64,000 nt of DNA from assembly GCA_963618065.1 (NCBI GenBank), contig CAVERH010000011.1, positions 1,315 to 65,314 of the forward strand, written 5' to 3'. The notes beneath the pieces were generated by a model. That model did not search any database. It saw only the letters and a program-made list of their open reading frames with translations, and was not told where the DNA came from. A program made the position numbers and the translations under genes. Below are positions 8,225 to 56,432 of the stretch, piece by piece. How positions within the stretch are numbered: the stretch's first letter is position 1; each line of letters begins with the position of its first letter. This stretch comes from a bacterium. GTDB lineage: Bacteria > Bacillota > Clostridia > Lachnospirales > Lachnospiraceae.

Positions 8225-8253
8225 TTGCATAGGAGGAAATTCCCATTTATAAT
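8225..8253 (+). promoter_or_regulatory. Sigma-A type promoter candidate for the metF operon
   Basis: TTGCAT (8225-8230), a 17-nt spacer, then TATAAT (8248-8253). Confidence 0.5.
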
Positions 8254-8256
8254 GTA

Positions 8257-8390
8257 ATGAGCCTCAGAGAAAACCAAGCGGCTGCAAAGCAGACATTTGG
8301 TTTTCCGGGCTCATTAACGAACATGCATCTGACGAAGTCAGATAGGGAGTGCGAAGCACGGGCATGTGAGTTGCTGTAAGCAGCAATTTT
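8257..8390 (+). promoter_or_regulatory. Structured 5' leader of metF (candidate riboswitch/attenuator, class unassigned)
   Basis: A long hairpin spans 8257-8314 (ATGAGCC..GGCTCAT enclosing GAAAACCAA/TTGGTTTTC). A three-way junction spans 8321-8367 (ACATGC..GCATGT with two GAA-capped hairpins). TTGCTG-TAAG-CAGCAA-TTTT follows at 8371-8390. Confidence 0.35.
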
Positions 8391-8466
8391 GCAAGTTTGC
8401 AAGTGGAATTCGGAATAGTTACCAGAACATGAAAATTGATAATCACAAACACGAAGAGGTAAAACA

Positions 8467-40842: not shown

Positions 40843-41087
40843 GTAACTATTCAGAGCCATGCAAATTATGGCAACAAGCTTCACTAGACTCACCTTTGGT
40901 TCGCCAAGTGAACTTGTATGGTTCGCACTAAGCTCGAAACCACCTCGCTAAGTGCTCTACTCAAATATGGACATAGAATGCTTGCATTCATATGGACATT
41001 TGACATGATTTATATGGCGAAATAACCACATGAGTAAAACTCGAGCTGTGAAACAGCAGTTTTACGAATGCGGTTCTGAATAGTTAC
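40843..41087 (+). repeat. Structured inverted-terminal repeat element, copy 1 (245 nt)
   Basis: Termini GTAACTATTCAGAGCC / GGTTCTGAATAGTTAC pair over 16 nt. It shares its left about 25 nt, a central GAATGC-TT-GCATTC palindrome and its right about 75 nt with 55058-55201. Confidence 0.65.
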
Positions 41088-43246: not shown

Positions 43247-43339
43247 CAATAAATTTGAACGTAAAGTAAAACAGGGTGACTGAACAGTTACAAAACAGGA
43301 AATGAATGGGATTAGAAAGAAAACGGAGGGAAGGAAACG

Positions 43340-54373: not shown

Positions 54374-54387
54374 TTGAAGTAAACGTG

Positions 54388-54420
54388 AGCCCTTGGATAA
54401 AACTAAGGGCTTTCTTGTTC
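54388..54420 (+). terminator. Terminator after rpsU
   Basis: AGCCCTT / AAGGGCT stem followed by TTCTTGTTC. Confidence 0.55.
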
Positions 54421-54453
54421 TTAGAGGCATTTATTCAAGCTGAGGGGAGCTTT

Positions 54454-55044
54454 ATGTGGACGAAAGAGATGTTTGGAACCGATGTGTATCATCTGGTTGC
54501 CGCATTTATTATTTATAGTATGCTGGGATGGCTTGTGGAATCAATCTACATGTCCATCTGCAATAAGAGGCCAACCAACCGTGGCTTTGGCAAAGGACCT
54601 TTCTGCCCGATCTACGGATTCGGGGCAGTCATCGGCTATCTGGTACTTCGGCCTCTGTCGAGCAATCCGCTGTTGCTTTACTGTGCCGGAGCGGTTATGG
54701 CTACGGTATTTGAATATCTGGTAGGAAGGCTGATGCTTAGGATTTTTGGTGAAGTCTGGTGGGATTATACGAATAAGCCGTGTAACTTCCAGGGGCTCAT
54801 CTGTCTGGAGAGTACCATAGCATGGGGCTTTTATGCAATTATTATTATCACGTTTCTGCATGGTAAGGTGATGGGAATGATTGACCGCTATGATATGCAG
54901 CTTGGGAAGCGGTTTTGTGTGATCGTGCTTTGCATTGTGATGATCGATTATCTGTTCCAGTTTGCGAAGCTGTTTGAGGCTGATATGAAAAAGAGCAGGG
55001 AACGTATTACGGAGCTGTACCAGAGCATCCGTGCGAAGTGGTAA
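54454..55044 (+). CDS. Membrane protein of the putative ABC-transporter type IV (CmpB/DUF1113) family
   Basis: IYSMLGWLVESIYMSI...NRGFGKGPFCPIYGFGAV and WWDYT blocks match that family as recalled. The start is at ATG 54454 after GAGGGGAG. Confidence 0.7.
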   Translation: MWTKEMFGTDVYHLVAAFIIYSMLGWLVESIYMSICNKRPTNRGFGKGPFCPIYGFGAVIGYLVLRPLSSNPLLLYCAGAVMATVFEYLVGRLMLRIFGEVWWDYTNKPCNFQGLICLESTIAWGFYAIIIITFLHGKVMGMIDRYDMQLGKRFCVIVLCIVMIDYLFQFAKLFEADMKKSRERITELYQSIRAKW

Positions 55045-55057
55045 TACGAATTCATTT

Positions 55058-55201
55058 GTAACTATTCAGAGCCATGCAAAATTGCTTTCTGTGAATGCTT
55101 GCATTCATACAGAATAGCAATTTTATATGGCGAAGTAACCACATGAGTAAAACTTAAGCTGCGTTAGCAGCGGTTTTACGAATGGGGTTCTGAATAGTTA
55201 C
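55058..55201 (+). repeat. Structured inverted-terminal repeat element, copy 2 (144 nt)
   Basis: It has the same 16-nt termini and conserved blocks as 40843-41087. TTCATTT flanks both sides (55051-55057 and 55203-55209). Confidence 0.65.
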
Positions 55202-55265
55202 GTTCATTTTTGAAACAGCAGGAACATATTTATAGGTATAGAGTTTTGTCGGGGAGAAGATTGCC

Positions 55266-56432
55266 TTGAGAACAATAATGAAGAAACTACTATGCGGTAT
55301 AATAACGTTCCTGCTGTTTGTGTCTGTACCGGTTTCTGCAATGGCAGCACCGGAAATTGATGCGCCGTCATACATTCTGATGGAAGCCTCCACAGGAAAA
55401 GTGATTTGTGAGCAGAATGCGGACGAACGAAGAAGTCCTGCCAGTATTACGAAAATTATGACCTTGCTGTTGATTTTTGACTACCTGAATACAGGGCGCG
55501 TGACCCTGCAGAGCGAGGTGACAACCAGTGCCCATGCAAAGTCCATGGGTGGTTCGCAGGTGTTTCTGGAAGAGGGAGAGGTGCAGACGTTAGAGACCAT
55601 GATTAAATGCATTGCAGTAGCCTCCGGAAATGATGCGAGCGTGGCAGCAGCAGAGTTCCTTGCAGGCAGTGAAGAAGAATTTGTGAAGCTCATGAATCTG
55701 CGGGCCGAGGAGCTTGGCATGGAGAATACACACTTTGAGGATTGCTGCGGTCTTACGGACTCAGACGGACACTATTCCAGTGCGAGGGATGTGGCAATCA
55801 TGTCGTGGGAGCTGATTACGAAGCATCCGGAGGTGCTTGATTATACCGGTATCTGGATGGAGGATATTGTGCATGAAACCGCACGGGGTACTTCCAATTT
55901 TACCCTGTCCAGTACGAATAAGCTGCTGAAAATGTATGAATACACCACCGGACTGAAAACCGGATCCACCAGTAAGGCAAAATACTGTCTGTCTGCAACT
56001 GCAAGTAAGGACAATATAGATCTGATTGCCGTTGTCATGGGCTCTTCCAATAATAAGGTGCGGTTTCAGGATGCCATGTCGTTACTGACTTACGGTTATA
56101 GCATCAGTTCTCTTTACGAGGATAAGAATGAAGAACAACTGCCGTTTCTTACAGTAAATGGCGGTGTAGAAGATACCGTCGCTCTTTCCTGCCAGGGTCC
56201 GTTCCGGTATTTGGATACGGAAGGGCAGGTACTGTCCGGAATTGAGAAGAAGATCGTTCTGCCGGAGAGCGTGGAAGCACCGGTGCAGGAAGGCGAGGCA
56301 GTTGGAGAAGCCGTGTACTTATTAAATGGAAACCGGATCGGTAGCGTTTCGATTGTGACAGGGAAGAACGTTGACAAGGCGGTTTACAAAGACTATTTGC
56401 AAAAAGTATGGAGAATGTTTTATACTGTATAA
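55266..56432 (+). CDS. D-alanyl-D-alanine carboxypeptidase (S11, PBP5/DacB-like)
   Basis: A signal peptide is present, with SxxK (PASITKIM), SGN (ASGNDAS) and KTG (LKTGST) motifs. TTG start with RBS GGGGAG; ATG 55278 is an alternative. Confidence 0.85.
   Translation: MRTIMKKLLCGIITFLLFVSVPVSAMAAPEIDAPSYILMEASTGKVICEQNADERRSPASITKIMTLLLIFDYLNTGRVTLQSEVTTSAHAKSMGGSQVFLEEGEVQTLETMIKCIAVASGNDASVAAAEFLAGSEEEFVKLMNLRAEELGMENTHFEDCCGLTDSDGHYSSARDVAIMSWELITKHPEVLDYTGIWMEDIVHETARGTSNFTLSSTNKLLKMYEYTTGLKTGSTSKAKYCLSATASKDNIDLIAVVMGSSNNKVRFQDAMSLLTYGYSISSLYEDKNEEQLPFLTVNGGVEDTVALSCQGPFRYLDTEGQVLSGIEKKIVLPESVEAPVQEGEAVGEAVYLLNGNRIGSVSIVTGKNVDKAVYKDYLQKVWRMFYTV

Follow-up and report, generated by a model that had tools for sequence, protein, structure and literature searches.

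The window, that is, the whole 64,000-nucleotide stretch of DNA analysed here, contains two copies of a hairpin-rich element, the second of which (copy 2) is our main subject. Copy 2 lies between two genes on the same strand, one encoding a CmpB-type membrane protein and the other a D-Ala-D-Ala carboxypeptidase that begins about 65-78 nt after the element. Its 144 bp are non-coding, with no gene inside them, and no promoter-like site is found within copy 2. Its ends are perfect 13-nt inverted repeats, the right one being the exact reverse complement of the left, and the ~15 nt next to the right repeat resemble the end of an IS that carries the transposase stop codon. Table 1 collects the coordinates of these features, together with examples of related short elements from elsewhere in the genome.

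Table 1. Features of the copy 2 locus, copy 1 and examples of related elements (window positions, unless a contig of the genome G000 is named)
Feature	Position	Strand	Remarks
Copy 1	40843..41087	+	245-bp subfamily, ~100 nt extra in left hairpin; without target duplication
CmpB-type membrane protein gene, upstream of copy 2	54385..55044	+	stop codon 13 nt before element
Target-site duplication, left copy	55050..55057		8 bp, ATTCATTT
Copy 2, probable MITE	55058..55201	+	144 bp; matches Rfam RF01699 (Clostridiales-1), cmscan 55.1 bits vs gathering score 48
Left terminal inverted repeat	55058..55070	+	GTAACTATTCAGA
Left long hairpin	55071..55131	+	tip GCTTGC
Right block, nested helices	55138..55188	+	conserved internal-loop strands CATGAG / CGAATG
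Inner hairpin	55158..55171	+	GCTGC-GTTA-GCAGC; five pairs, all covarying (50 distinct copies)
Right terminal inverted repeat	55189..55201	-	reads TCTGAATAGTTAC on + strand
Target-site duplication, right copy	55202..55209		GTTCATTT, 7/8 match to left; A/G mismatch common to the relatives G080 and G073
D-Ala-D-Ala carboxypeptidase gene, downstream of copy 2	55266..56432	+	Peptidase_S11 (E 5e-72) and PBP5_C
21-nt palindromes, examples	G000 C10:28723-28743, C74:12476-12496, C48:19358-19378
133-nt family, examples	G000 C4:28782-28914, C14:13093-13225, C36:23584-23716

As a single strand, copy 2 folds into a three-way junction made of an outer stem formed by both ends, a 61-nt left hairpin and a nested right hairpin. 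The fold has an energy of -66 kcal/mol (z = -10.5), which none of 200 shuffled sequences equals, and the opposite strand folds nearly as well (-60.7 kcal/mol). In an Rfam scan of the window, the match of copy 2 to RF01699 on the + strand is the single one above threshold. The fourth hairpin of the RF01699 model is missing from copy 2 (34 model positions are deleted), so that three of the four stems are present. Matches of the hairpin to microRNA families were also returned; these lie far below their thresholds and are due to chance.

The original prediction had pointed to a 7-bp direct repeat around copy 2, separated from the right end by one extra G, as a sign of transposition. The duplication itself is real; its length has to be corrected to 8 bp with one mismatch; what looked like an extra G is the mismatched first base of the right copy. 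Random pairings of flanks give 7/8 or better at the exact boundary in ~1% of cases.

Copy 1 folds in the same way as copy 2, around its extra ~100 nt, and scores 24 bits with RF01699, below the gathering threshold of 48. The differences between the two copies that had been read as structure-preserving are all present. The inner hairpin given in Table 1 corresponds to GCTGT-GAA-ACAGC in copy 1, and the enclosing stem is GTAAAAC/GTTTTAC in copy 2 and GTAAAACT/AGTTTTAC in copy 1; the double changes preserve pairing. It had also been noticed that copy 1 has no clean flanking duplication, and its flanks, CCTTATTT and TTTAATTA, indeed show none. The extra segment (TATGGCAACAAGCTTCACTAGACTCACCTTTGG..., window 40868-40975) recurs at C59:3301-3371, C2:1-57 and C29:2582; copy 1 is thus a member of a subfamily rather than the result of a one-off insertion. 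Elsewhere in the window there are a decayed third copy at 8240-8422, whose right end is GAATTCGGAATAGTTAC and which matches RF01699 weakly (18.8 bits, G000:C11:9564-9692), and, at 43276-43291, a solo end, GTGACTGAACAGTTAC, grouped with the 133-nt family described below.

The rest of the genome, a 3.4-Mb draft (G000), was searched with the 13-mer end motif, and the same motif reversed was used as a control. The end occurs 225 times (114 exact and 111 one-mismatch occurrences), compared with 0 and 6 for the control. These occurrences include ~41 pairs of ends 130-160 nt apart, a second family of 133 nt, eighteen 21-nt palindromes and many solo or truncated ends, several of which sit at contig termini. 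All copies are intergenic, dispersed and without coding capacity, and half-elements, solo ends and 21-nt remnants are likewise scattered across the genome.

For transposition, the flanks of the other copies are informative. The 29 full copies of the copy 2 size class in G000 have 8-bp flanking repeats that match at 8/8 positions in 11 cases and at 7/8 in 7 (18/29 in total). Among 50 copies from further Lachnospiraceae genomes, 20 have a perfect 8-bp duplication and 7 more match at 7/8 positions (27/50 with at least 7/8). Most copies in this larger sample therefore have a flanking duplication of 8 bp, as copy 2 does, and no family copy has a flanking repeat of 9 or 10 bp. The 133-nt family is bounded by GTAACTATTCAGTACAGGTCGAAGC...GGTACTGAACAGTTAC. 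Its ends are near-identical, and 6/8 copies have a perfect 8-bp duplication; its interior is unrelated to that of the copy 2 family and has no Rfam match. A third family, of 142 nt, is seen at C41:10674 and C150:5.

The target is asymmetric once sites are aligned by the Rfam strand of the element: across 38 sites (G000 and loci L107-L177), the duplication reads NNNNWTTT and is followed by WAAA, with T at 71-78% in duplication positions 6-8 and A at just 18-36% in the mirror positions. This differs from what is expected for a symmetric transposase cut, namely a consensus symmetric about the centre of the duplication. Solo GTAACTATTCAGA ends preceded by TAAAAT were considered as a possible promoter or operator motif. 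That idea was rejected: the flank profile of solo ends is the same as that of paired ones, and the TAAAAT context is thus a target preference.

Both copies in the window had been described as lying upstream of envelope-related genes. The D-Ala-D-Ala carboxypeptidase downstream of copy 2 is confirmed by its Peptidase_S11 match, and the rhomboid-like label given to the ORF after copy 1 is unsupported, with no Pfam match. Any association with envelope genes is incidental: copies occupy many unrelated intergenic regions in either orientation. Relative to co-directional neighbouring genes, 23 elements are sense and 23 antisense, an even split both in G000 (11:11) and elsewhere (12:12).

A transposase with matching ends, which the original prediction proposed to look for, exists in related genera. 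The IS66 transposase domain was searched in 61 genomes of Lachnospiraceae, one per genus. One match is an 1815-bp contig (L034) that is bounded by GTAACTATTCAGA...TCTGAACAGTTAC and contains a single ORF of at least 100 aa. The 488-aa product matches DDE_Tnp_IS66 (PF03050, E 1.5e-41) and NF033517, the NCBI IS66-family equivalog model, at 257 bits against a cut-off of 180; the element thus consists of a single DDE transposase gene, without tnpA or tnpB. In another genus, the transposase at L218 is 89% identical to that of L034 and is accompanied by the exact terminal repeat; L219, from a related genus, is likewise an autonomous element with the same ends. A more distant IS relative, L226, is flanked by an 8-bp duplication, CACATAAC. 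In the IS end beside the transposase stop codon, the first 18 nt are identical to the right end of the MITE, and similarity continues for ~10 nt further. The resemblance of copy 2 to an L034-type IS is confined to this right end of ~30 nt and to 13 nt at the left end; copy 2 is gene-less and only 144 bp long, with an unrelated interior. Among described elements, ISDge4 is a single-ORF member of the ISBst12 group of the IS66 family that was observed transposing in Deinococcus, with ends GTAACTGCTCAGCA and an 8-bp direct repeat (PMC12898284); the ends of copy 2 share with it both the GTAACT..TCAG start and the 8-bp direct repeat.

In the G000 assembly itself, a tblastn search with the L034 protein finds no intact transposase gene, and a search for ends paired 0.3-12 kb apart with a duplication finds no full-length IS. 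The only IS66-family match in the assembly is a fragment at C133:1-480, a C-terminal piece (PF03050). It was rejected as the partner; its downstream end, GTAAATAACTCGCC, differs from the ends of copy 2. At two contig ends, C5:1-55 and C82:10272-10326, the repeat continues into 3' codons of a transposase, ALNGTPNIIFN*, which match the C-terminus of the L219 transposase, ALNGNPYNIFN. Since the smallest contig of G000 measures 2020 bp, a repeat of 1.8 kb that collapsed in assembly would be missing from it. Taken together, the two contig ends and this minimum size suggest that the partner IS is very probably present in G000 and unassembled.

Short, hairpin-rich, intergenic palindromic units in high copy number that begin with GTAA, as these do, might also be read as REP/REPIN- or IS200/IS605-type elements, which a tyrosine (HUH) transposase moves in single-stranded form. 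REP sequences begin with GTAG. Target duplications are not made by such systems, and the exact 8-bp duplication that is usual in the present family contradicts this reading; further, there is no bias in orientation relative to gene direction, and hence none relative to replication direction, and the matching autonomous element encodes a DDE enzyme of the IS66 family. We therefore give movement by an HUH enzyme next to no credence and continue with the IS66-family transposase as the likely source of mobility.

Insertion can also be seen by comparing species. The flanks of 35 loci were joined in silico and used as queries against three congeners, and many of the 35 give uninterrupted matches. 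Two loci were read base by base. At C1:77774, G100 and G073 carry a single AAATGTTG, while in G000 this 8-mer stands on either side of a 155 bp element. At C75:5468, the insertion is shared by G080, and the site is empty, with a single 8-mer, in G100 and G073. Matches consisting only of the flanks also span the junctions at C37:9691, C56:17323, C149:3201 and C15:55507. The empty sites that the original prediction suggested seeking in related strains are thus found, cleanly, in related species and at the loci of other copies; at the copy 2 locus, the relatives have no clean empty allele, only remnants. Together with the duplications across the family and the IS with the same ends, these empty sites support the initial view that copy 2 was inserted by transposition.

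The same evidence bears on the current annotation. Weinberg et al. 2010 (PMC2864571) described Clostridiales-1 as a four-stem structure common in the human gut, with no mention of it as a repeat or mobile element; Rfam classes RF01699 as 'Gene; sRNA', and a 2026 preprint still counts Clostridiales-1 among regulatory RNAs. A full-text literature search by name found no description of it as a mobile element. If these assignments are followed, copy 2 would be a plain small-RNA gene or cis-regulatory leader, with the inverted ends serving as its outer helix and the flanking repeat arising by chance. This is very improbable, since it is contradicted by the empty sites in relatives and by the duplication statistics: most copies have duplications at their exact boundaries, and the duplicated sequence varies from copy to copy. 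A transposase-bearing element with the same ends and the half-elements, solo ends and 21-nt remnants across the genome also count against it. Rather than such a gene, the copy 2 family has inverted ends, a fixed duplication of 8 bp, many non-coding copies, empty sites and a matching autonomous element, all features by which a MITE is recognised.

What relatives retain at the copy 2 locus indicates how such insertions decay. In G080 the locus reads ACTCATTT-GCAACGATTCTGAATAGTTAC-GTTCATTT, with both duplications around a 21-nt end-to-end palindrome; in G073 it reads ATTCGTTT-ATATA-GTTCATTT, with 5 nt left. There is thus a series of sizes, from 144 nt in G000 to 21 nt in G080 and 5 nt in G073, and it appears that in two related species the element has shrunk by internal deletion, to the palindrome in one and to 5 nt in the other. 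In G100 the remnant is rearranged, and a member of the 133-nt family has inserted next to it. Because the A/G mismatch between the duplications is common to G080 and G073, the insertion of copy 2 predates the split of these species. It is old, and copy 2 is the only intact survivor at this locus among the relatives compared.

At another locus, C75:7021, the situation is reversed: the 21-nt palindrome is found in G000, whereas the element is complete in G080 (153 bp), is reduced to 47 nt in G073 and has kept just its right end in G100. A full element in one species opposite a palindrome in another implies that the 21-nt palindromes are products of internal deletion in situ. The eighteen palindromes in G000 are perfect or near-perfect, of the form GTAACTATTC(A/T)GAATAGTTAC, and consist of two ends only; 7/18 have 8-bp duplications matching at 7 or more positions, and some have empty alleles in relatives. 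Erosion can go further, to half an end, as at C4:77849 and C14:27645 in G080. The process of deletion is read from these forms; a plausible candidate would be that the host trims DNA able to form hairpins.

Some copies are far more alike than their surroundings. The copy at C75:5468-5621 in G000 and its orthologue in G080 (C36, L265) are identical at 154/154 positions, while the 450-nt flanks are 84% and 87% identical and the divergence reaches right up to the left boundary of the element. In addition, a copy at a different locus in G073 matches copy 2 without a difference for 148 nt. Such identity amid diverged flanks could reflect re-insertion at hot spots, or else homogenisation (concerted evolution) among copies.

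The Clostridiales-1 core is widespread. Ten copies in G000 pass the RF01699 threshold, and matches occur in 65 of 121 Lachnospiraceae genomes sampled at one per genus, often with 20 or more in each; the exact 23-nt left end of the copy 2 family is found in Lachnospiraceae including Waltera, Kineothrix, Anthropogastromicrobium and Acetatifactor. Three features of RF01699 recur in copy 2: the outer stem, a long hairpin with the tip GCUUGC, and a nested hairpin enclosed by the CAUGAG...CGAAUG block. Both are multi-copy in gut Lachnospiraceae; canonical copies score ~150 bits, far above the 55.1 of copy 2. There is also a difference in the ends. The outer stem of copy 2 is an ISBst12-type transposon end, whereas canonical copies in another genus end with GATGCCAGGGTCAAAAG... 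and have 7-bp duplications. In that genus (G037, loci L089-L103), canonical Clostridiales-1 forms units of 182-194 bp with ends GATGCCAGGGTC... and ...CCCACATC, and their 7-bp duplications are perfect in 6/10, with 2 more at 6/7; the genome contains 143 canonical-type ends, compared with 6 for the control. Since the ends of these units differ from those of the copy 2 family, the same core rides on two end systems. The search for a partner of the canonical GATG...TCAAAAG elements found none: their ends are on 0/30 IS66-family loci, and 14 contig starts in G037 are all MITE interiors.

We now turn to the fold. In the right block, 50 distinct sequences from this and other genomes form standard pairs in 93.4% of cells. 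The covariation score is 0.239, compared with 0.106 in shuffled alignments (0/500 as high), and sliding the partner columns lowers pairing to 36-48%. In the inner hairpin, 99.6% of cells are paired, and each of the five pairs changes on both sides. In the left hairpin, all 50 distinct sequences form hairpins (-18 to -38 kcal/mol, versus -7 to -14 when shuffled), and they fall into at least 25 sequence groups. Between groups the middle stems bear no relation to each other, and yet they are near-perfect inverted duplicates with the same overall shape. Pairing is thus kept through double changes in a larger sample, and the structure-preserving change proposed from the two copies in the window is correct.

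At which level this pairing is maintained is a separate question. The core of the MITE might also work as an RNA, made from read-through or self-promoted transcripts of the Rfam strand and serving, for instance, as a protein-binding module or one for processing or stability, in which case RNA selection would maintain the covariation. The strength of that covariation fits such a role, as do several features of the Rfam strand: it folds better in 67/71 distinct copies, it has more G-U pairs (154, versus 97 on the opposite strand), and it alone has the CUUG (GCUUGC) and GNRA-like loop tips. The facing CAUGAG and CGAAUG strands are conserved, and in another genus a different end system, with duplications of 7 bp, carries the same core. 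The copies are related, however, so the strand asymmetry may simply be inherited. Other observations point away from RNA: orientation to neighbouring genes is random, copy 2 has no internal promoter-like site, its two strands fold almost equally well, and sister species freely delete orthologous copies. G-U pairs make up only 3.8% of pairs, and switches from C:G to T:A occur with almost no wobble intermediates. Overall, we consider a working RNA core unlikely, although it deserves some weight. The fold more likely serves propagation or persistence of the element as DNA than an RNA function for the host, given the 23:23 orientation and the 21-nt and 5-nt remnants that are all some relatives retain.

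Pairing might also be kept with no selection at all. Quasipalindrome-templated mutation is an established process, and by intrastrand template switching or fold-back synthesis a palindrome could correct itself, with changes in one arm copied to the other and whole arms replaceable. The many left-hairpin groups with unrelated middle stems that are still near-perfect inverted duplicates are what such copying would leave, and the near absence of wobble intermediates agrees with it. Pure templating would, however, erase conserved unpaired motifs, whereas the unpaired motifs and tips GCTTGC, CATGAG and CGAATG are retained from genus to genus, as are fixed bulges and internal loops, and the RF01699 architecture is the same in 65/121 genera sampled. 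Self-correction as the whole explanation is accordingly doubtful. We are equally tentative about the idea that the Clostridiales-1 core is a selected passenger module that boosts the spread or retention of whichever MITE carries it, acting as RNA or as folded DNA in transposition, targeting or homogenisation of copies. This idea draws on the presence of the core on at least two unrelated end systems, the strand-specific tips and the orthologues that are letter-identical despite flanks diverged by 13-16%.

The reading that we prefer, and hold with considerable confidence, is that copy 2 is a MITE whose ends derive from a 1.8-kb, single-gene IS of the IS66 family (ISBst12-type) that mobilises it in trans, and whose Clostridiales-1 fold is kept for the propagation of the element. 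An IS66-family transposase supplied in trans would move MITEs of the copy 2 type, and by cutting the target with an 8-bp stagger it would generate the flanking duplication. The interior carried along would be a truncated Clostridiales-1 fold, with an outer stem formed by the ends, the GCTTGC-tipped hairpin and a second, nested hairpin. We infer both the mobilisation in trans by this transposase and the help that the fold may give the element in propagating or persisting as DNA from comparisons of sequence.

Several consequences would follow. Since 2010, Rfam has listed Clostridiales-1 as an orphan 'sRNA', and it is still tallied as regulatory RNA in metagenome studies. If it is the body of a MITE, its matches mark the repeat load of Lachnospiraceae rather than regulation, and its covariation is a case study of mobile DNA imitating functional RNA. 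In annotating Lachnospiraceae assemblies, many contig breaks and stray hairpins can be put down to these elements. Finally, the forms that run from the complete element through the 21-nt palindrome down to a few bases trace the path by which such elements erode.

Both the remnants and the family as a whole can be compared with known systems. Nearly precise excision of Tn10 and palindrome trimming are host-mediated deletions between inverted repeats. The 21-nt palindromes resemble the remnants of Tn10 in keeping both duplications and the outer 10 nt of each end; in the present case, what is seen are end states in different species. Correia/NEMIS elements of Neisseria, ERIC, RUP and BOX are short, intergenic, high-copy elements with inverted ends and stem-loops, and Correia elements duplicate TA. 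The copy 2 family is likewise short, non-coding, intergenic and high-copy, with inverted ends and stable stem-loops. It differs from these elements in the family of the partner transposase and in the length of the duplication, and its interior is shared with MITEs that have other ends. Rather than a new kind of element, the copy 2 family is apparently an unpublished member of a well-known kind.
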